Assembly (NCBI GenBank): GCA_913055805.1
Contig: CAJXLF010000010.1
Coordinates: 85,040 to 149,039, forward strand
Length of the DNA: 64,000 bases
Direction of reading: 5' to 3'
Origin: an uncultured Salinisphaerales bacterium
Lineage (GTDB): Bacteria > Pseudomonadota > Gammaproteobacteria > Nevskiales > CAJXLF01
Numbering within the stretch: the stretch's first letter is position 1; each line of letters opens with the position of its first letter. The notes under the pieces are model-generated. The model ran no database searches, was not told the origin of the DNA, and saw nothing but the letters and a program-made list of their open reading frames with translations. Below, in pieces: positions 8,939 through 63,881 of this stretch. A program made the position numbers and the translations under genes.

Positions 8939-9385
8939 CACGCAAAGGCGCAAAGGCGCTAAGAAGGAAAATAATGAATGAAAACGATTTGTCTCGTTTG
9001 GTTGTGGGTACTGCCATAGACATTCACAAAAAGTTGGGGCCTGGATTGTTGGAGTCAGTATACGAAGTTGTGCTGGCCCATGAACTTAAGGCAAAAAAGC
9101 TGCAGATTGAACGGCAGGTAAGGATGCCGGTGAATTATCAGGGTTTGCAGTTTGATGAAGGTTTTCGTGCGGATCTGATTGTTGAACGCAAGGTGATTGT
9201 TGAATTGAAATCAATGGAGAGCCTTTCGCGTGTACATAAAAAGCAACTGCTGACGTATTTGCGTCTGGCAGATATGAGATTGGGGTTGCTGATCAATTTT
9301 GGAGCTGAAGTTTTAAGAGATGGATTGGTAAGAGTGGTTAATGGTTTACATGAATAGAAACTTTGCGCCTTTGCGCCTTTGCGTG
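8939..9385. repeat. inverted-repeat-bounded cassette (IR arms 8939-8959 and 9365-9385) enclosing the GxxExxY gene
   Basis: The left arm is CACGCAAAGGCGCAAAGGCGC. The right arm GCGCCTTTGCGCCTTTGCGTG is its exact reverse complement. Confidence 0.7.
8974..9357 (+). CDS. GxxExxY protein (PD-(D/E)XK-like small protein family)
   Basis: GPGLLESVY (GxxExxY) motif, then FRADLIVERKVIVELK (D..ExK-like). 127 aa. GC looks lower than in the flanking gcv genes. Confidence 0.75.
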   Translation: MNENDLSRLVVGTAIDIHKKLGPGLLESVYEVVLAHELKAKKLQIERQVRMPVNYQGLQFDEGFRADLIVERKVIVELKSMESLSRVHKKQLLTYLRLADMRLGLLINFGAEVLRDGLVRVVNGLHE

Positions 9386-46248: not shown

Positions 46249-46288
46249 TGCCGTCTTGAAACGGACATTCTCATCACAAGGAAGTGAA

Positions 46289-46504
46289 ATGAAACCGACG
46301 AATTATCCATCTGTACTGGCCTGCACTGCCGGGCTGTTGCTAAGTGCCTGTAGTGCTCAAAGCGTTTATGAAGGAAGCCACCAGTACCGCGCTGACCAGT
46401 GCGCCAAGCTGCCAGAGCCCGAATATGGTCAATGTCTGGCCGAGGCGAGGAAACCCTACGGCGAACACAGGAAAGAATACGATGACCAGGTCGAGGACAA
46501 ATAA
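46289..46504 (+). CDS. small lipoprotein, unknown function
   Basis: Lipobox LLLSAC follows a short signal peptide. 71 aa. Confidence 0.5.
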   Translation: MKPTNYPSVLACTAGLLLSACSAQSVYEGSHQYRADQCAKLPEPEYGQCLAEARKPYGEHRKEYDDQVEDK

Positions 46505-46531
46505 CTCTTCGACTACCGGCTTATTCTGACG

Positions 46532-46912
46532 TCAGTGCCGGGCCTGACGCGAAATCAGGCATTCGGCAGGAATGCCGAAATCGTTATACAGGCCTTCAAT
46601 CATTCTCAAGGTCAGAGGTCGGCTTCCTTTGAGCACCTCATAAACGCGGTTCTTTCGTCCGATAACAGGGACGAGGTCATCTACTGTGAGTCCCTGCTGT
46701 TCCATACGGAATTTTATGGCTTCAATCGGACTGGGCAAATCCAGGGGAAAGTGAGTGCGTTCGTAAGCTTCTACCAGCGTGACCAGAATATCGAGGCGGT
46801 CACCTTCAGGCGTGTTGGCTTCAGCCTCCATGAGGCTCTCGATCTCTGCGAGCGTTGCCTTATGGTCCGCGTCAGTTTTGATTGGGCGAATATCCATTAC
46901 ATCACCTTTCAT
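46532..46912 (-). CDS. higA: HigA-family antitoxin (C-terminal HTH)
   Basis: IRPIKTDADHKATLAEIESLMEAEANTPEGDRLDILVTLVEAYE is a typical N-terminus for this HigA subfamily. 4-nt overlap with the upstream toxin gene. Confidence 0.8.
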   Translation of the reverse strand: MKGDVMDIRPIKTDADHKATLAEIESLMEAEANTPEGDRLDILVTLVEAYERTHFPLDLPSPIEAIKFRMEQQGLTVDDLVPVIGRKNRVYEVLKGSRPLTLRMIEGLYNDFGIPAECLISRQARH

Positions 46913-47211
46913 ATTGTTTGCACATCGATCGCATCGTATTGCTTATGCGTGCCGATAAAGCGAACGTATACAACCCGGTACGGGTAATTGATCCAGGCCA
47001 CAATCCTGTACTTGTTGCCACCGATGTTAAAAACCACACGCCCATCCTTGAGAATGCTGGCGTTCTTGAACTGGGCTTTTAACTCGTTCGGATTGGCCCA
47101 GTCTGCCTTCAGCACTTCCCGATACCACGCCAGGGTGGGTGCCCGAGCATCCTGGTGTGCTTGAGAGTCTGTCCAAAAGGCTTTAAGCGTGGACAGGGCG
47201 ATGACTCTCAT
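46909..47211 (-). CDS. higB: HigB-family type II toxin (RelE fold)
   Basis: MRVIALSTLKAFW...NASILKDGRVVFNIGGNKYRIVAWINY...VYVRFIGTHKQYD is a canonical HigB pattern. Confidence 0.85.
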   Translation of the reverse strand: MRVIALSTLKAFWTDSQAHQDARAPTLAWYREVLKADWANPNELKAQFKNASILKDGRVVFNIGGNKYRIVAWINYPYRVVYVRFIGTHKQYDAIDVQTI

Positions 47212-47223
47212 GAGAAATATTTT

Positions 47224-47240
47224 AGTCCCATTTTGGGACT
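47224..47240. promoter_or_regulatory. candidate HigA operator: AGTCCCA-TTT-TGGGACT
   Basis: Perfect 7-bp inverted repeat 13 nt upstream of the higB start codon. Confidence 0.45.
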
Positions 47241-47310
47241 TAAGTAAAGGTGGGATGCCAGGACGTACTTCATGTGTTTTTGTTTGGTCTGATGAAGTTA
47301 GTATGTTGAA

Positions 47311-47330
47311 TACTGTAAATTAATACAGTA
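47311..47330. promoter_or_regulatory. LexA (SOS) box-like site TACTGTAAATTAATACAGTA
   Basis: Exact match to the gammaproteobacterial TACTG-N10-CAGTA / CTGT-N8-ACAG consensus. It lies in the divergent intergenic region between higB and the ICL/PEP-mutase family gene. Confidence 0.55.
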
Positions 47331-47362
47331 TAAAGTTATTGGCAAATTTTTTTCGTGAGTTG

Positions 47363-48220
47363 ATGATGAATGAAGCACACAAAGCGAAGGCCAATATGTT
47401 CCTGAAGATGCATGAGGCTGACGGTTGCTTCCTGATGCCGAATGCCTGGGATGCAGGCAGTGCGAAGATGCTGGTGCATTCAGGTTTCGGGGCCATCGGC
47501 ACCACCAGCGCCGGAGTGGCCTTTGCGCTGGGTCGTCCCGACAATGTCTATTGTTCACCAGAGGCAAGGGTGAGCAGGCAAGCCATGCTCGCAGAAATCC
47601 AGTCTGTTACGCAGTCTGTCTCGGTGCCGGTAAATGCTGATCTTGAGGGCGGCTACGGCGACTCGCCCGAGGATGTGGCGGATTGCATCAAGCTGGCGAT
47701 TGAAGCCGGTGCCATGGGTGGCAACATTGAGGACTACACCGGCATCGAAGCGGCACCACTTTATGACCTGTCCCTGGCCGTAGAACGGATCAGGGCAGCC
47801 CGCGAGGCTATAGATGCCAGTGGTGTGCCGTTTGTGCTGGTGGCACGAACTGACAGACTTCTTGCCGCCGCGCCAGATGGCTTTGCCGAGGCGGTGGAAC
47901 GGGCCAATCGGTATCGAGAAGCCGGGGCTGATTGCCTGTTTGCACCCGGTGCGAGCGACCTGCCGACAGTGAGCAGCCTGGTGCGAGAAATCAACGGACC
48001 CATTAACGTGGTGATGGGCCTGAGTGGTAGTGATGTTTCCGTGGCACAGCTCAGAGACGTCGGAGTGCGGCGTATCAGTATTGGCGGAAGCCTGGCCCGT
48101 GCTCTTTATTTCCGCATACAGGAGGCCGCACGGGAAATGCTCGAGGAAGGCACTTTCGCATTTGCGCAAAATCAGGTCGCGCAGTCCGAACTGAACAAGA
48201 TTTTTGAATCTACGCTCTGA
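47363..48220 (+). CDS. isocitrate lyase / PEP mutase superfamily protein
   Basis: FLMPNAWDAGSAKML...GTTSAG and GGNIEDY motifs. The start is set at the first ATG; the track start is a TTG. Confidence 0.75.
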   Translation: MMNEAHKAKANMFLKMHEADGCFLMPNAWDAGSAKMLVHSGFGAIGTTSAGVAFALGRPDNVYCSPEARVSRQAMLAEIQSVTQSVSVPVNADLEGGYGDSPEDVADCIKLAIEAGAMGGNIEDYTGIEAAPLYDLSLAVERIRAAREAIDASGVPFVLVARTDRLLAAAPDGFAEAVERANRYREAGADCLFAPGASDLPTVSSLVREINGPINVVMGLSGSDVSVAQLRDVGVRRISIGGSLARALYFRIQEAAREMLEEGTFAFAQNQVAQSELNKIFESTL

Positions 48221-48229
48221 GAACTGTGG

Positions 48230-48613
48230 TTACCACCGAATCCTGACTTTCTTCACGCCCCAGCGCCGGGCGCGCTGCACGTCGGTACCCATGTAGATAT
48301 CGATCTTGTGGTACCAGTCGTCGGGCATCTTATCCAGCACGGTGTACTCGCCTTCCAGGCCGTCTATGCGGACCTTGGTGCCACGCCGTATGCCGTGCTC
48401 CTCGATCAGGTCGGGGGAGACGGCAATCGCCTTCATGCCGGGCGCAAGCTTGTCGCCCCAGGCGCCGCGGGTGGGATCACCTTCGGTCTGGTCGGGCAGG
48501 GAGTTATAGGCGCTGGCCTTGACCCACATGCTGCGTTCTTCGGCATGGGCGGGCATGCAGGCAAGCGAGATCAGCAGGAAAACGAGGCCGTGTAGAAAAT
48601 AATTGAGTGGCAT
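48230..48613 (-). CDS. 3D-domain (MltA/RlpA-like fold) secreted protein
   Basis: Signal peptide MPLNYFLHGLVFLLISLACMPAHA. ASAYNSLPDQTEGDPTRGAWGDKL...IDIYM is the 3D-domain pattern. Confidence 0.7.
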   Translation of the reverse strand: MPLNYFLHGLVFLLISLACMPAHAEERSMWVKASAYNSLPDQTEGDPTRGAWGDKLAPGMKAIAVSPDLIEEHGIRRGTKVRIDGLEGEYTVLDKMPDDWYHKIDIYMGTDVQRARRWGVKKVRIRW

Positions 48614-48671
48614 AGAAGTTACGATCTGGAAATGATCGTGCATAGACCTCGGCTCAGTCCCGGAAGTTCTT

Positions 48672-50377
48672 AGATTCAAGGCATAATACTCTTGACATAA
48701 AGTTCTTGAAACTGAGGGGGCTATAGTTACACTCATTGATAACATCGCAGTAAATGCATCTGAGTGATATCCATACAATTATGTTCTCAGCAAAGAGCTA
48801 AGAATTAACTGCTATATAGCTAAATAACTAGGAAGATAAATAGAGAGGAGGTAGGACATGTTTTATTGGACGCATGTTCGAAAAGCGTTTTGGCGTACTT
48901 CTGCGAAGCTTCATGTCCCCCAATGCTTATTTCTTTTGTGCTTGGCTGTTTTCTCTTCTGGCTTAGGGGCGTGGGAAGAAGATTATGAGATTCTGAGAGA
49001 TGACGATTATGTATGTGATCAGGATTCGAATATTTTAGAAAGCAAGAAAAGGAGAGGGCTTGCTTCTTTGATCCAGGCTGTTGAGTCCAAAAAAGTAATA
49101 TTAGTGGTTAATAAAGGTACTTTCTCTCTTAATAAATTTAAAAACTCAAGAACTCGGAGAATCAGTTATTCGAAGAACAACTGGATCCCCAATGGAAGTG
49201 TGGTGGTATTTGCCAATGATTTAGAGCCTGGAATATGTATTCCGATTAGATCAGCCGACGAATCAATTTATTATTTTAATGTGATTAGCGATGAGGGTGT
49301 CTCAGGATATGTGGAAAGACAGTATTTATCTACACTGCCTTACCCTGAAGGTGACGAGAAATACTATTTTCCCAGAAGCGAAATAAAAATTTACAAAAAC
49401 AAAGAACATTCTGAAATTAAATCATCCGCAAATCCAATACAAGGTGTGTATTTTAGATACTTGGCAAGTAAACCAGGTGTGAAGCAAGTCAGTTATTTCC
49501 ATCTACTTGGAAATGAAGATCGATTTGATGTTTGGAGAGGGGAATCTATTGATGCACAAATAGAAAAAGAGGTCGGTTGGATTAAATCAGAGGAATTAAG
49601 TGCTGGACGAATTAAAGAGGTATCTAAGAAAAATCTAAGTTTATTGAGGCAGATCAAAATTCAAAAGCAGCGAGGAAACGAGAGTGATAAGGATGCTTTT
49701 ATAACTACTCTAAGTAAATTAAGAGATCAGGAAAAAATCAGGCAAGTGGTTAAGAAGCTAAAATCTGAGTTACCCTCTAATTTTTCTTGTAATTCTGAAG
49801 TGGATGTGGAATTAGCTGCGGGTATTGAGGCGAAAACGCCGCCGTTTTTTGTCGCCCTAAAGGGTAATGTGGGCGGAAATGTTAAATGGGTGATAAAAGA
49901 GAAGAATACGAAACTTCTTTATGAAAACTACAAAATTTATTCAAGTTCCTTAGGGCAAAATTTAGCTGTGGTTCGAAGGGCAAAGTGTAAAGATGATGAT
50001 GTGTTGGATGAGCTTGAATTTGTGAAGTTCAGTCTGCCTCAATTAGGTACGGAAACGCCATTGGTTTTTGGCATGAAAGAAAACGGAGAAAAGTTAAAGG
50101 ACCACATAGCCAAAACATACTTTGGCAAAATAAGTGATCCGAAGATGTATCAGATATCAGGCCATGAAAGCTGGTTGACGGTCTATCAATATGTAGAAAA
50201 TAGCTTGGTAAATAAATCCCCTGCCCAATGGAGTGACATCACAACCGCAAGTAATACAGACGGCACGAGTCAGGAGTATGCACTAAGACAGGCTTTGCGG
50301 GCATTCATTATTCAGAGAATTGCACACTTTAAAAATTAGTTGCTATAGCTATTGCTTATTTCGTTAAATCAGCTATA
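48672..50377. mobile_element. AT-rich ~1.7 kb islet bounded by 20-bp direct repeats (48652-48671 / 50378-50397) that duplicate the yajQ 3' end
   Basis: The left repeat is GCTCAGTCCCGGAAGTTCT and the right is GCTCAGTCCCGAAAGTTCT (19/20 identical). Both encode NFRD-stop on the minus strand. The composition between them is visibly AT-rich compared with the flanks. No recombinase is present. Confidence 0.55.
48858..50339 (+). CDS. hypothetical 493-aa protein (ORFan), N-terminal signal/anchor
   Basis: Strong GGAGG Shine-Dalgarno sequence 7 nt upstream. It is the only long ORF in the AT-rich islet. No family was recognised. There are two possible SH3b-like segments and a Lys/Glu-rich central stretch. 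Confidence 0.6.
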   Translation: MFYWTHVRKAFWRTSAKLHVPQCLFLLCLAVFSSGLGAWEEDYEILRDDDYVCDQDSNILESKKRRGLASLIQAVESKKVILVVNKGTFSLNKFKNSRTRRISYSKNNWIPNGSVVVFANDLEPGICIPIRSADESIYYFNVISDEGVSGYVERQYLSTLPYPEGDEKYYFPRSEIKIYKNKEHSEIKSSANPIQGVYFRYLASKPGVKQVSYFHLLGNEDRFDVWRGESIDAQIEKEVGWIKSEELSAGRIKEVSKKNLSLLRQIKIQKQRGNESDKDAFITTLSKLRDQEKIRQVVKKLKSELPSNFSCNSEVDVELAAGIEAKTPPFFVALKGNVGGNVKWVIKEKNTKLLYENYKIYSSSLGQNLAVVRRAKCKDDDVLDELEFVKFSLPQLGTETPLVFGMKENGEKLKDHIAKTYFGKISDPKMYQISGHESWLTVYQYVENSLVNKSPAQWSDITTASNTDGTSQEYALRQALRAFIIQRIAHFKN

Positions 50378-50379
50378 GC

Positions 50380-50862
50380 TCAGTCCCGAAAGTTCTCGTA
50401 CTGAAGTGGTTGCTCCAGATCGGCCTGCTTCAGCAGGGCGATAGCGGCCTGCAGATCATCACGCTTTTTGCCCGTGACACGTACTTTGTCGCCATTGATC
50501 TGGGCGCTGACTTTCAGCTTCGCGTCCTTCAGGGTAGCCGTGATTTTCTTGGCCAGCGGCTGTTCAATACCCTGTTTGACCGTAATTACCTGCTTGGCCT
50601 GGGCCAGGTTGGTGTCCGGTTCGCCTTCGTCCAGGCTGCCCAGGTTGATGCCGCGGCTCACCAGCTTCTTGTGCAGTATGTCGAGCATCTGCTGCAGCTG
50701 GAAATCGCTCGGCGCGGTCTGCGTAATAACGAATTCCTGCAACTCGTAAGTGGCATCTACCCCTCTGAAATCAAAGCGGTTTTCCAGTTCGCGTTTGGCC
50801 TGGTCCACGGCGTTCATGAGTTCGTGGCGGTCAACTTCGGAAACGATATCGAATGAGGGCAT
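50380..50862 (-). CDS. yajQ: YajQ-family nucleotide/c-di-GMP-binding protein (UPF0234)
   Basis: MPSFDIVSEVDRHELMNAVDQAKRELENRFDFRG is a canonical YajQ sequence. Confidence 0.9.
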   Translation of the reverse strand: MPSFDIVSEVDRHELMNAVDQAKRELENRFDFRGVDATYELQEFVITQTAPSDFQLQQMLDILHKKLVSRGINLGSLDEGEPDTNLAQAKQVITVKQGIEQPLAKKITATLKDAKLKVSAQINGDKVRVTGKKRDDLQAAIALLKQADLEQPLQYENFRD

Positions 50863-50871
50863 GATTGTTCC

Positions 50872-51144
50872 TTAACTGTTCTCGCTTAGTCGGCCTTCTA
50901 CATACTTGTGCAGAATGCTGGCCGCCAGTGTCTGGTAGGGGATGCCTTCTGCAAGTGCGCGTTTCTGCAGGCTTCTCAGATCCTTGGAGGGCAAGCGGAT
51001 GTTGATCCGGGCATCCTTACGCAGCATGGCTTCTGCATATTCCTTATGCCGTTTTTGCGTTGCAGGCGCATCTTTGGATTTTCTGGTCTTGCCTGACTCA
51101 TAGGCTTCCAGAATTTCCTGTTCTTCTTTATTCAGCTTACTCAT
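50872..51144 (-). CDS. brnA: BrnA-type (CopG-like) antitoxin
   Basis: RINIRLPSKDLRSLQKRALAEGIPYQTLAASILHKYVEGRL is the BrnA C-terminal pattern. It overlaps the upstream toxin gene by 8 nt. Confidence 0.65.
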   Translation of the reverse strand: MSKLNKEEQEILEAYESGKTRKSKDAPATQKRHKEYAEAMLRKDARINIRLPSKDLRSLQKRALAEGIPYQTLAASILHKYVEGRLSENS

Positions 51145-51418
51145 CTTCAGTGCCTCGATAAATTTTCGTAGCCTTGCGGCTAGGGATGACGGTTTTCAGA
51201 AAAACCTCATCTTCAGATTCCACGAATGGCACCAGGTACACGTAGTCTTCCATGGCGATGACGTGAATCTGCTGTCCTGGATAACGCTCCTGATTCGGAT
51301 GGTCGATAGTTTCAATGATGTCACCGGCCAAAATATGGAACAGTACATCTTCAAAACACACAGCTCTCTGAGCCTTCAGTCGCTCATTCTTCTCAGGATT
51401 CCATGTGATTATTTTCAT
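51137..51418 (-). CDS. brnT: BrnT-like (DUF497) toxin
   Basis: ITWNPEKNERLKAQRAVCFEDV resembles the BrnT N-terminus. 93 aa. It is paired with a BrnA-like gene. Confidence 0.6.
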   Translation of the reverse strand: MKIITWNPEKNERLKAQRAVCFEDVLFHILAGDIIETIDHPNQERYPGQQIHVIAMEDYVYLVPFVESEDEVFLKTVIPSRKATKIYRGTEDE

Positions 51419-51443: not shown

Positions 51444-52580
51444 CTATTGTGACGACTCCCAGCTCATATGCGGCCTGGCCAGGTATTCCTGTGACTGCAT
51501 TTCCTGCAGGCGGCTGACGGTGCGCTCGAACTCAAAGGTCAGCTTCTTGCCGGAATAGAGCGTTTCCAGCGGTTCGGCGGCGGAGATGATGAGTTTTACG
51601 TTGTGGTCGTAGAACTCATCGACCAAGGTAATGAAGCGACGGGCCTCGTTTTCCATTTCCCAGGTCAGACCGGGGACTTTCGACAGCAGTACGGTCTGGT
51701 AGCAGCGGGCAATTTCCGTGTAGTCGGCAGCGCCACGCGGGCCGCTGCACAGGGCATTGAAGTCGAACCAGGCCACGCCGTCCGCCAGGCGGCGGGTGGT
51801 TATGCGGCGGCCATGCAGTTCCAGGTCGGCATCGCTCTGGCCCAGGTTGGGCGCGATGTCGCGGAAATAGTTCTGCAGGTTATCCTCGGCCTGGTCATCC
51901 AATGGGTGGTGATAGATCTCGGCCTGCTGCAGTACGCGCAGGCGGTAATCGGTACCGCCATCCACTTCCAGAATATGGCAATGCTGCTGGATGCGCTCGA
52001 TGGCGGGCAGGAAGCGTTCACGCTGCAGGCCGTTCTTGTAAAGCTCATTCGGCGGGATGTTGGAGGTCGTGACCAGAGTAATGCCATGGCTGAACAGGCA
52101 TTCTGTGAGCCGGCCCAGGATCATGGCGTCGGCAATGTCGGAAACGAAGAATTCGTCAAAGCATAGTACGCGGGTTTCAGCAGCAATCTCGGCCGCAACC
52201 TTCACCAGTGGATCCTGCTCGTTCTGGTAATGTTTGCGGCGCTCGTGCACGTCCTGCATGAAGCGGTGGAAGTGGGTACGCCGTTTCTTGCTGAAGGGCA
52301 GGGCGTCGTAGAAGGTGTCCATCAGGTAGGTCTTGCCACGACCCACGCCGCCCCACATGTACAACCCCTTCACCGGCGGCCACTGCATGCTGTTGCGTGC
52401 GCGTAGTCCCAGGCGCCGGGTTGGCTTGCGGCTGATAAGCTGCTCGTAGACCTCATGCAGGCGGGCCACGGCCCGCGCCTGGGCGGCATCACGCTGATAC
52501 TCGCCCCCCTTCAGGTCCGCCTCGTAACGGGCCTGGGGCGAAAGCTGAATGTCAGCGTTCCTGGGAGACATAGAATTCAA
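51444..52580 (-). CDS. zapE: cell division protein ZapE (AFG1-like ATPase)
   Basis: GLYMWGGVGRGKTYLMD (Walker A) and VLCFDEFFVSDIADAMIL (Walker B). Confidence 0.9.
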   Translation of the reverse strand: MNSMSPRNADIQLSPQARYEADLKGGEYQRDAAQARAVARLHEVYEQLISRKPTRRLGLRARNSMQWPPVKGLYMWGGVGRGKTYLMDTFYDALPFSKKRRTHFHRFMQDVHERRKHYQNEQDPLVKVAAEIAAETRVLCFDEFFVSDIADAMILGRLTECLFSHGITLVTTSNIPPNELYKNGLQRERFLPAIERIQQHCHILEVDGGTDYRLRVLQQAEIYHHPLDDQAEDNLQNYFRDIAPNLGQSDADLELHGRRITTRRLADGVAWFDFNALCSGPRGAADYTEIARCYQTVLLSKVPGLTWEMENEARRFITLVDEFYDHNVKLIISAAEPLETLYSGKKLTFEFERTVSRLQEMQSQEYLARPHMSWESSQ

Positions 52581-52683
52581 CGGGATGCATAGGGCTCGGT
52601 ATTATACGTGCTCGCCCCGGTCACAAGGGGCGGTGCAGGGAAACATTACGCAGACTGGCATCAGTACGAGGACCAGGGCAAAC

Positions 52684-53613
52684 ATGGGCAGGCAGGCACG
52701 CCAATCCATCCAGGCAAACATACCCGAAGCGGCGCAGGCGCTGATCGAGCGTTTTGCCGACGCCGTGTGGGCGGAGCGCGGCCTGTCGGACCGCACCCTG
52801 GAAGCCTACCGGCGAGACCTGGCGCATTGGGCCGCCTGGCTGCGGCAGAAAGGCAAGGGTTTGCTGGACGCCTCCCAGATCGAGATGCTGGACTATGCCG
52901 CCAACCAGCAAACGCAGGTTACTGCTCGAACCGCTGCTCGCCGCCTCTCCAGCCTGCGCAGTTTCTACCGGCATGCCGTGCGCACCGGGCAGATCAAGGT
53001 TGATCCTACCCAGGATATCGTTTCCCCCAAGTTGCCTCGACCTTTGCCCAAAAGCCTCTCCGAGGCGCAGGTGGAAGCACTGCTGGAAGCGCCGGATACC
53101 GAAACGGCCCTGGGCATGCGCGACCGTGCCATGCTGGAAACTCTGTATGCCACCGGCCTGCGCGTATCCGAACTGGTTGGCCTGCAACTGCATCAGGTCA
53201 ATCTGGTGCAGGGCGTGGTGCAGGTAGTCGGCAAGGGCGGCAAGGAACGCCTCGTACCCCTGGGCGAGGCGGCACAGGAATGGCTGCAAGCCTACTATGA
53301 AGAAGCGCGCGGCCAGCTGATGAAAGGCCGCATGTCCGACTACCTGTTCCCCAGCCGGCGGGCGGACTATATGACACGCCAGAACTTCTGGCATATCATC
53401 CGGCGCTATGCCGAATCCGCCGGCATCAAGACCGAATTGTCCCCGCACGGGCTGCGCCATGCCTTTGCGACCCACCTGCTGAATCACGGTGCGGATTTGC
53501 GTGTGGTGCAGATGCTGCTGGGGCATGCGGATCTTTCGACAACACAGATTTACACCCATGTGGCCCGGGCCCGCTTGAAGTCACTGCATCGGACGCACCA
53601 TCCCCGTGGATGA
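52684..53613 (+). CDS. xerD: site-specific tyrosine recombinase XerD
   Basis: LIERFADAVWAERGLSDRTLEAYRRDL... and the C-terminal HGLRHAFATHLLNHGADLRVVQMLLGHADLSTTQIYTHV. The xerD-dsbC order is present. The start is set at an internal ATG. Confidence 0.9.
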   Translation: MGRQARQSIQANIPEAAQALIERFADAVWAERGLSDRTLEAYRRDLAHWAAWLRQKGKGLLDASQIEMLDYAANQQTQVTARTAARRLSSLRSFYRHAVRTGQIKVDPTQDIVSPKLPRPLPKSLSEAQVEALLEAPDTETALGMRDRAMLETLYATGLRVSELVGLQLHQVNLVQGVVQVVGKGGKERLVPLGEAAQEWLQAYYEEARGQLMKGRMSDYLFPSRRADYMTRQNFWHIIRRYAESAGIKTELSPHGLRHAFATHLLNHGADLRVVQMLLGHADLSTTQIYTHVARARLKSLHRTHHPRG

Positions 53614-54634: not shown

Positions 54635-54886
54635 TTAGGAGTTAATGGCCTTGATCACATTGACCGGATCATTTTTTATTGCCCGTAGCAGGGAAAGTGC
54701 GGCTCCCTCGGGTTGCCGTCTGCCTTGCTCCCATCCCCTCAGCGTGCCTACGGGTACGTTCACTATTCGGGCAAATTTTTCCTGTGACAGGTGAGTAGTG
54801 GCGCGAATCTGCTTAACGTCGATAGTCATATCCGCTTTCATCCACTGAACGCTTTCCAGTAGTGCTTCGAAATCCTTATCGTCCAT
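54635..54886 (-). CDS. XRE-type HTH antitoxin (partner of RelE/HigB2-like toxin)
   Basis: LSQEKFARIVNVPVGTLRGWEQGRRQPEGAALSLLRAIKNDP is a typical sequence for this family. It is adjacent to the toxin gene with a 1-nt overlap. Confidence 0.8.
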   Translation of the reverse strand: MDDKDFEALLESVQWMKADMTIDVKQIRATTHLSQEKFARIVNVPVGTLRGWEQGRRQPEGAALSLLRAIKNDPVNVIKAINS

Positions 54887-55197
54887 TAATCCGACTCCAT
54901 CATGTGCCTGAGTATTTTCTTTTGAGTAGTGGATAAATCAGCTTGCTGATTCTTCGAAAATCCAAGCAATAAATAAATTACGTCCAGAGATACGTATCGG
55001 TAGTAAATGACTCTTCCGGCACTGCGCTTGCCCTTGCCGCCATAGGCAACGCGGGCTTTCCTCAGTCCGCCAGTGCCTTGAATCACATCGCCCAGATCCG
55101 GATTAGCTAACAGCTGATTCTGGAAATGCCGTAATTCAGTATCCGTCAGTACTTCTTTAGCCCACTTGGTAAACAAGGGGCTTTCTTTGAACACCAT
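54886..55197 (-). CDS. RelE/ParE-superfamily toxin (HigB2-like)
   Basis: GGLRKARVAYGGKGKRSAGRVIYYRYVSLDVIYLLLGFSKNQQADL is the family pattern. Confidence 0.8.
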   Translation of the reverse strand: MVFKESPLFTKWAKEVLTDTELRHFQNQLLANPDLGDVIQGTGGLRKARVAYGGKGKRSAGRVIYYRYVSLDVIYLLLGFSKNQQADLSTTQKKILRHMMESD

Positions 55198-63372: not shown

Positions 63373-63594
63373 ATGATGCACAGTCTTACAGAGATCGAGA
63401 ATGAAATTTTAAGCCTGTCTCCCGAAGAAAGGGAGCACGTGGCTTTAACTGCATGGGCCAGCCTTGATAACGGCCCCTCACTGGATCCCGAAGGGATAGA
63501 TATAGCGCTTCGTCGTGATAGTGACATCGAATCCGGCAATGCAGAAACTATTAGTCATGCCGAATTCGTAAAGCTCACTAACGACGAAAAATGA
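63373..63594 (+). CDS. addiction-module antitoxin (putative addiction module component family)
   Basis: ILSLSPEEREHVALTAWASL... is the family pattern. 4-nt overlap with the downstream toxin gene. Confidence 0.7.
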   Translation: MMHSLTEIENEILSLSPEEREHVALTAWASLDNGPSLDPEGIDIALRRDSDIESGNAETISHAEFVKLTNDEK

Positions 63595-63881
63595 AGCTTG
63601 AATTTCATCCTTCAACTACAACTGATCTGAACGAAGCAATCAAATACTACAACGAACTGCGGCCTGTTCTTGGTAAGCGCTTCCGTTCAGAGGTTTACGA
63701 TGCAATTGCGCGTATTCAAAACAACCCATTGGCCTATTCGGAAATCAAGGGTGTGCGGCGGGCAATGTTAAGCCGGTTTCCCTACTCAATTATTTACCGG
63801 CTCGTCGATAATCAAACCATTCGCATACTCTTGATCAGGCATCATCGCCGCCACCCAGGCCATGAGTCGCGTCGAAATTAA
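63591..63881 (+). CDS. RelE/ParE-family toxin
   Basis: KLEFHPSTTTDLNEAIKYYNE...RFPYSIIYRLVDNQTIRILLIRHHRRHP is a ParE-like layout. Confidence 0.75.
   Translation: MKLEFHPSTTTDLNEAIKYYNELRPVLGKRFRSEVYDAIARIQNNPLAYSEIKGVRRAMLSRFPYSIIYRLVDNQTIRILLIRHHRRHPGHESRRN

Follow-up and report, generated by a model that had tools for sequence, protein, structure and literature searches.

A small AT-rich islet with a single orphan gene between duplicated yajQ ends in an uncultured Salinisphaerales bacterium

A stretch of 64,000 nucleotides (hereafter the window) from an uncultured Salinisphaerales bacterium (contig CAJXLF010000010.1, positions 85,040 to 149,039) was found to carry a foreign AT-rich islet inserted at the 3′-end of yajQ, a gene of the DUF520/YajQ family (50380..50862, minus strand; 160 aa; PF04461, E 1e-61). 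The islet body (48671..50377, no strand assigned) is 1707 bp long and lies exactly between two 19-bp direct repeats that duplicate the end of yajQ; it holds a single open reading frame (ORF), named here ORF493, and no recombinase gene. It is interpreted, with moderate confidence, as an integrase-less integrative islet resembling the cis-mobilizable elements (CIMEs) or the pseudo-SCC cassettes of staphylococci (SCC, staphylococcal cassette chromosome), the junctions of which would have been made by site-specific recombination.

The duplication and the insertion

The right, or proximal, repeat copy (50378..50396, GCTCAGTCCCGAAAGTTCT; no strand assigned, as for the left copy) contains the functional last five codons of yajQ, its stop codon and two further nucleotides; on the minus strand it reads GAG AAC TTT CGG GAC TGA GC, i.e. 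…YENFRD-stop plus 2 nt, and thus keeps the reading frame of the gene. The left, or distal, copy (48652..48670, GCTCAGTCCCGGAAGTTCT) reads AAC TTC CGG GAC TGA GC on the same strand (N-F-R-D-stop plus GC), and direct reading of the sequence revealed no YajQ-like reading frame upstream of it. The view that the right copy is the real end of yajQ and the left one a detached duplicate was therefore borne out. The two copies agree at 18 of 19 positions, the lone mismatch being a synonymous change in the Phe codon. The original prediction had given the repeats as 20 bp long with one mismatch; the repeat and the mismatch stand, but the 20th base differs between the copies (t versus c), as do the bases preceding them, which leaves a 19-bp repeat with both edges sharp. 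Beyond these two, no further copy was found in the window, even when three mismatches were allowed, none of 100 shuffled controls gave two matches, and the chance expectation for an 18/19 pair within 2.7 kb is ∼8 × 10–4.

The compositional boundaries coincide with the inner edges of the repeats. The islet body has a GC content of 37.6%, while its flanks have 58.0% and 55.9% and the remainder of the window 58.3%; no other low-GC stretch of the window is as deep or as long. At the right edge the GC content steps from 29% inside to 57.5% outside, and at the left edge from 30% to 42.5%. The predicted AT-rich islet of 1.7 kb was thus confirmed, as was the sharp discontinuity that a GC profile was expected to reveal. 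The repeats themselves have a host-like GC content although the element is otherwise AT-rich. The ends of the islet, TAGATTCAAGG… and …AATCAGCTATA, are not inverted repeats of each other.

To see the site without the islet, the corresponding loci of relatives were collected via searches with YajQ and with the product of the 3D-domain gene (48230..48613, minus strand; 127 aa, with a signal peptide) that lies beyond the left repeat. In three of them (L167, L173 and L178) the site is empty, as had been anticipated: the yajQ stop codon is followed by a spacer of 39–41 bp and then by the start of the 3D gene, each locus has one copy of the yajQ end, and nothing corresponds to the islet body at the homologous position. 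The YajQ proteins of L167 and L178 are 82% and 79% identical to that of the window, and the 3D protein of L173 is 84% identical. With positions 48671–50396 left out, the yajQ end, spacer and 3D-gene ATG of the window form a collinear alignment with those of L167 and L173; the L178 spacer, compared by eye, is similar to window positions 48614–48651. Since the spacers at the empty sites match 48614..48651 (minus strand), this segment, which the left repeat abuts, is the native yajQ-3D spacer. The 3D gene is consequently the original downstream neighbour of yajQ, from which the islet now parts it. These empty sites with a single yajQ end show that the segment was truly inserted at the yajQ 3′-end, where it probably split a former yajQ-3D transcription unit. 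On the minus strand, the frame of the 3D gene stays open upstream through the left repeat and into the islet (48614–48778), which is why the start assigned to this gene varies with the gene caller used for each assembly (127, 137 or 168 aa); the relatives support the 127-aa start at 48613.

Contigs of the same organism from six independent samples are 99.96–100% identical across the locus; their agreement shows that the structure is not a misassembly. They are clonal, and contain no variation showing excision. Samples that carry the islet include SRR6201699, SRR6201700, ERZ508520 and the JGI data sets 3300026980, 3300026874 and 3300001237.

The islet is foreign and, judging from its low GC content, from the GC content at third codon positions (GC3) of ORF493 (0.35, compared with 0.6–0.79 in neighbouring genes) and from the confinement of ORF493 to this organism, horizontally acquired. 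The opposite polarity, in which the islet would be ancestral and would have been lost from the relatives by deletion between the repeats, is hardly credible. Direct repeats can mediate precise deletion, and the empty sites number just three, all in fairly distant relatives (79–84% YajQ identity). Against this stand the GC3 of ORF493 compared with that of the host genes and the absence of ORF493 from every other sequence searched; moreover, the same precise loss would be needed in three separate lineages, and the duplication would still demand an insertion-type origin.

How the junctions may have arisen

A repeat that covers the last codons of a gene, its stop codon and 2 nt, and leaves that gene intact, is the classic layout of integrase-mediated insertion at a gene 3′-end, and by this analogy such an insertion is the most likely origin of the islet. 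A Campbell-type origin is favoured because the repeat holds the gene end, the frame is kept, the compositional edges are sharp and relatives have empty sites. The element would have entered by conservative site-specific recombination between a 19-bp core on a circular form and the identical 3′-end of yajQ. The crossover would leave one core with yajQ, which would retain its conserved …ENFRD C-terminus and stop codon, and would displace the other by 1.7 kb to its present position beside the old yajQ-3D spacer. The present element, being devoid of a recombinase gene, would be either what deletion has left of a larger integrative element or a non-autonomous passenger that depends on a recombinase from elsewhere. 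The junction predicted for the circular form is …CAGCTATA-GCTCAGTCCCGRAAGTTCT-TAGATTCAAGG…, i.e. …TTCGTTAAATCAGCTATA / GCTCAGTCCCGRAAGTTCT / TAGATTCAAGGCATAATAC…, and the predicted repaired empty site is …CAGTACGAGAACTTYCGGGACTGAGC / CGAGGTCTATGCACG…. If this reading is right, an exact pair of attachment sites (attB/attP) would be available for tracing the responsible recombinase in the full genome.

The original prediction had described the repeats as an att-site signature in a segment with no integrase or transposase. The insertion at the yajQ end holds, and so does the absence of these genes: ORF and family searches found none in the islet or adjoining it, the sole ORF has no family match, and the flanking non-coding arms of 187 and 38 bp leave no space for a decayed integrase gene. 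The assignment of the repeats to a recombinase did not find the same backing, and several results weigh against site-specific recombination. Elsewhere in the window the only detectable recombinase is the tyrosine recombinase XerD (52549–53613); its conservation beside zapE in the relative L007 marks it as a housekeeping protein. In the yajQ loci of ∼170 relatives, neither a second copy of the respective yajQ end nor a nearby integrase was found within flanks of 5–6 kb (longer islands would escape such a search), so that the yajQ end is not demonstrably a recurrent att site. The core 19-mer has no match in IMG/VR, from which ORF493 is likewise absent (pattern scan confirmed by tblastn), and neither the islet DNA nor ORF493 (tblastn) was found in plasmid and phage collections. 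The proposed search for other core copies, or for recombinases with similar att cores, was thus negative for the window and the ∼170 yajQ loci and, as regards the core, for IMG/VR; the data searched contained no copy of the islet elsewhere, no second element with the same core and no sign of mobility. Compared with shuffled sequences, the repetition of core words in the arms is not significant (P ∼0.1). Pseudogene debris is also missing from the islet, which has only 225 bp of non-coding DNA, and a decay scenario therefore requires a very clean deletion. Finally, the core belongs to this lineage: although the protein tail ENFRD is conserved, the nucleotides of the 12 closest relatives agree with it at only 12–17 positions out of 19, and in several of them yajQ ends with a different stop codon. 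An element-borne core must therefore fit this very lineage, or else both copies are host sequence duplicated at the insertion.

The latter possibility would dispense with a sequence-specific recombinase. Foreign DNA could have been captured at a staggered double-strand break, with nicks 19 bp apart, or inserted by an unknown transposition- or integrase-like activity; fill-in would then give two host copies, one of which later acquired a point mutation. This origin is considered unlikely, but it accounts for several observations: both copies carry the lineage-specific letters (TGA stop plus GC, CGG Arg codon) that set them apart from the closest relatives, the GC content of the repeat is host-like within an AT-rich element, the searches gave no recombinase, and the islet stands alone, at a site not reused in relatives. 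However, the break must by chance have preserved the frame and stop codon of yajQ exactly, and clean junctions at both ends are rare among random end-joining insertions. Ordinary transposons generate target duplications shorter than 19 bp (typically 2–14 bp), and no bacterial transposition system is known to duplicate 19 bp unless it has terminal inverted repeats and a transposase, neither of which is present here.

The synonymous nature of the single mismatch between the copies is what would be expected if one of them came from the functional yajQ of another strain. It could be explained by short-homology recombination without a dedicated integrase, in which DNA of a related strain, circular or linear and bearing ORF493 beside a yajQ end, was joined to the chromosome by a single crossover (RecA-dependent or RecA-independent) or by homology-facilitated illegitimate recombination anchored in yajQ. 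The variability of the yajQ-to-FGGY-kinase interval within the clade (see below) fits this too. The homology, however, ends abruptly past 19 bp on both sides, where the AT-rich DNA starts at once with no imported yajQ-like tract, and a length of 19 bp lies at or below the threshold usual for efficient homologous recombination. This route would, moreover, only shift the first origin of the repeat to the donor. It is regarded as rather improbable.

Site-specific recombination thus remains the preferred account of the junctions. A bolder version of it, in which the islet would be a minimal and still-active non-autonomous cassette, is judged decidedly improbable. Such a cassette would consist of one cargo gene, two short arms with GCTATAGC-type sites and the 19-bp core, would rely for its movement in trans on a recombinase gene located elsewhere in the genome, and would be a counterpart, among integrative elements, of the miniature inverted-repeat transposable elements (MITEs), shuttling single orphan genes into the yajQ end.

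The cargo gene, the arms and the neighbouring genes

ORF493 (48858..50339, plus strand; 493 aa), the islet's only gene, is a real gene because it is a 1.5-kb ORF in AT-rich DNA, it has a ribosome-binding site (a strong GAGGAGG Shine-Dalgarno sequence shortly before its ATG) and it has a homologue. Its N-terminus, a basic stretch followed by CLFLLCLAVFSSGLGA, resembles a signal peptide when judged from the sequence without a predictor, and the product is probably exported. Searches in Pfam (also at E values up to 10), NCBIfam, PHROGs and PADLOC gave no usable family match, and a word-indexed search of 5.8 billion proteins retrieved no relative besides ORF493 itself. An exhaustive HMMER scan of 1.8 billion representatives yielded a single remote relative, P0002 (E 1e-4), which is collinear with ORF493 (24% identity over 371 aligned positions) and begins with a canonical signal peptide; in the protein searches, ORF493 itself was seen in no organism but this one. 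A search of the Protein Data Bank (PDB) with a two-sequence profile returned only noise, and AlphaFold2 produced no usable model of ORF493, the predicted local distance difference test score (pLDDT) being 38 with the single sequence and 32 with the two-sequence alignment.

The gene for P0002 lies in DNA of 34–46% GC and adjoins an S8 peptidase gene. Neither repeats comparable to those of the islet nor GCTATAGC motifs were found beside it (L174, L175). In L174, a long non-coding stretch upstream of this gene (2154–2999) holds an apparent C-terminal fragment of a papain-like peptidase (…GDGGYGWLPYDYVLRGMARDWW…) beside the intact S8 peptidase gene. The ORF493 family may travel with secreted hydrolases.

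The left non-coding arm (48671..48857, plus strand; 187 bp, 35% GC) includes the Shine-Dalgarno sequence of ORF493. It has one weak sigma-70-like match (48706–48733), the only site returned by a promoter consensus scan and fewer than were obtained in shuffles. A terminator consensus scan detected no canonical terminator, and Rfam and tRNA scans of the region were negative. The right arm is 38 bp long. Palindromes of the GCTATAGC type had been reported near both ends of the islet. Those at 50342–50349 and 50372–50379, both in the right arm, are exact, while the one at 48811–48820 in the left arm occurs only as the 10-bp variant GCTATATAGC; the left arm has a further variant, GCTATAG, at 48721–48727. 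The window contains three copies of GCTATAGC where 0.49 would be expected, and GCTATAG-type motifs are modestly enriched in the two arms (P ∼0.005).

The two exact palindromes can pair as a hairpin (50342..50379, no strand assigned; arms 50342–50353 and 50367–50379) with a 12-bp stem and z-scores of –2.6 (plus strand) and –3.6 (minus strand). ORF493 and yajQ converge on this hairpin, which is placed exactly between their stop codons; on the yajQ strand it precedes AACUAAUUUUU, a terminator-like arrangement. The right-arm copies are therefore not necessarily recombinase sites, a transcript-end hairpin being a sufficient explanation for the pair; a role of GCTATAGC copies as binding sites of a recombinase or regulator is possible but not supported. 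At present the hairpin probably serves to terminate or stabilise the transcripts of yajQ and ORF493, which converge there.

Other repeated words were noticed in the arms. At 48700–48717 the left arm has AAGTTCTTGAAACTGAG, in which the 3′ word of the core, AAGTTCT, occurs together with CTCAGT, the core's 5′ word in reverse complement; GGGGGCTATAG follows. A pair of imperfect direct repeats, TAAGAATTAACTGCTATA (48799–48822) and TAAAAATTAGTTGCTATA (50330–50352), hugs ORF493, one lying 40 bp upstream of its start and the other spanning its stop codon; both read Lys-Asn-stop in register, followed by a GCTATA(TA)GC palindrome. Since both read K-N-stop and then TGCTATA, the left arm was considered as the tail of a lost upstream paralogue of ORF493 together with that gene's hairpin, an idea that was rejected because the frame is riddled with stop codons and blastx matches were at noise level.

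Between yajQ and the FGGY-kinase gene that converges on it lies a variable interval, the gene content of which differs in almost every relative. The two genes are directly adjacent in L007, L087 and L168–L172, and probably in L177 as well, where the converging gene is cut and unannotated. In L176 yajQ has a DUF1326 gene downstream of it and then a converging gene that is cut and unannotated; the interval of L173 contains the 3D gene and a chromate transporter gene, and in L179 the 3D gene abuts the kinase gene. In the window the interval holds, besides the islet and the 3D gene, a phosphoenolpyruvate (PEP) mutase-like gene (47339–48220), the HigB/HigA pair (46532–47211) and a small lipoprotein-like ORF (46256–46504), all three between the 3D gene and the kinase gene. 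The stretch 46249–48229 is missing from all close relatives examined, in which yajQ or the 3D gene either borders directly on the kinase gene or is parted from it by other genes. No boundary repeats were found within it, neighbouring toxin-antitoxin modules included; the islet alone has them. Serial accretion was considered and discarded, as the variable stretch 46249–48651 contains no further degenerate copy of the core with up to three mismatches. This gammaproteobacterial clade has, in the yajQ-to-kinase interval, a small hotspot where genes are gained.

On the other side of yajQ, a BrnT/BrnA-like toxin-antitoxin pair (50872–51418, GC 45–50%) separates it from zapE. In L178 genes for an ABC transporter ATPase and an ABC-2 permease lie between zapE and yajQ, in L167 an ABC-2 permease gene is immediately 5′ of yajQ, and L007 has an uncharacterised interval of 1.8 kb there; the transporter genes between zapE and yajQ appear to have been replaced or lost. 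Further small low-GC genes occur at 54635–55197 (a RelE/helix-turn-helix (HTH) toxin-antitoxin pair), at 8974–9357 (a 127-aa gene of 42% GC between glycine-cleavage-type genes) and at 63591–63881 (a 96-aa ORF of 47% GC); several tiny accessory modules dot an otherwise housekeeping region.

Comparison with known mobile elements

The islet shares with genomic islands and prophages of tyrosine integrases, which insert into tRNA, tmRNA or protein-coding gene 3′-ends, the duplication of the target 3′-end, an AT-rich composition relative to the host, and a gene restored by the copy on the element: yajQ is intact at 160 aa and ends in …YENFRD-stop, while the detached copy encodes NFRD-stop. It differs from them in having no integrase gene adjoining an att site, in its size (1.7 kb as opposed to the usual 5–100 kb) and in that a pattern of arm-type repeats is not statistically supported. 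With integron cassettes it has in common a single-ORF unit of ∼1.7 kb and palindromic sequence at the 3′-end. In contrast to these, it is without an attC organisation, lacks integron integrase and attI, is delimited by the duplicated 19 bp of a host gene end in place of G/TTRRRY junctions, and has a long 5′ arm of its own (187 bp). A GTTAAAT word is present in the right arm, but direct reading revealed no paired inverse core, and an integron cassette was rejected.

An insertion sequence (IS), transposon or MITE was also rejected, as the islet lacks terminal inverted repeats and a transposase, is flanked by a 19-bp duplication and is present in a single copy in the window. The same holds for a XerCD-dependent element (an integrative mobile element exploiting Xer (IMEX), or a dif module), the 19-bp core being unlike dif. 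Of the 28 positions of the E. coli dif sequence, the right arm, ending in TTCGTTAAAT, matches only 17, and its XerC arm is poor; the organism's own dif is not present in the window.

If the proposed origin is correct, the islet would be a very clean and unusually small example of an orphan gene entering a bacterial chromosome: one gene, probably for an exported protein, would have arrived at a conserved gene's 3′-end and done that gene no damage, and the two junctions are preserved together with an empty site that can be inferred. No current concept would be changed; islets that lack an integrase and lie between att repeats are already well documented.

Integrase-less elements that retain attL and attR form a described class (PMC5704250, PMC6323972), within which CIMEs have been defined for streptococcal systems of ICEs (integrative and conjugative elements) and IMEs (integrative and mobilizable elements) (PMC5704250; ICEberg 2.0, PMC6323972). 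Like CIMEs, the islet is small, carries only cargo, and lies between attL/attR-like direct repeats in which the 3′-end of a protein-coding target gene is contained; genes for integration or transfer are lacking, the sole ORF having no match in Pfam, NCBIfam, PHROGs or PADLOC. Unlike them, it has no parent ICE or IME with the same core among the ∼170 yajQ loci, the plasmids, the phages or IMG/VR (searched with the core 19-mer and the ORF493 protein), and it is unrelated in sequence to any ICE, IME, plasmid or phage. It shows no tandem accretion and has only one gene, and its host is a gammaproteobacterium related to Nevskiales and not a firmicute.

Pseudo-SCC elements have no ccr genes, yet are located between direct repeats at the 3′-end of orfX (PMC6243372). 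The islet is likewise a cassette without recombinase genes of its own, flanked by short direct repeats (15–20 bp class), the result of an insertion that entered a conserved housekeeping gene (orfX/rlmH in staphylococci) at its 3′-end and preserved its frame. The target gene and the host differ, and SCC ends bear characteristic inverted repeats and have known cognate Ccr serine recombinases, neither of which has been identified for the islet. Strict membership of either group fails for want of a known parent or helper element with the same att core; the islet is best filed beside the CIMEs and the pseudo-SCC cassettes.

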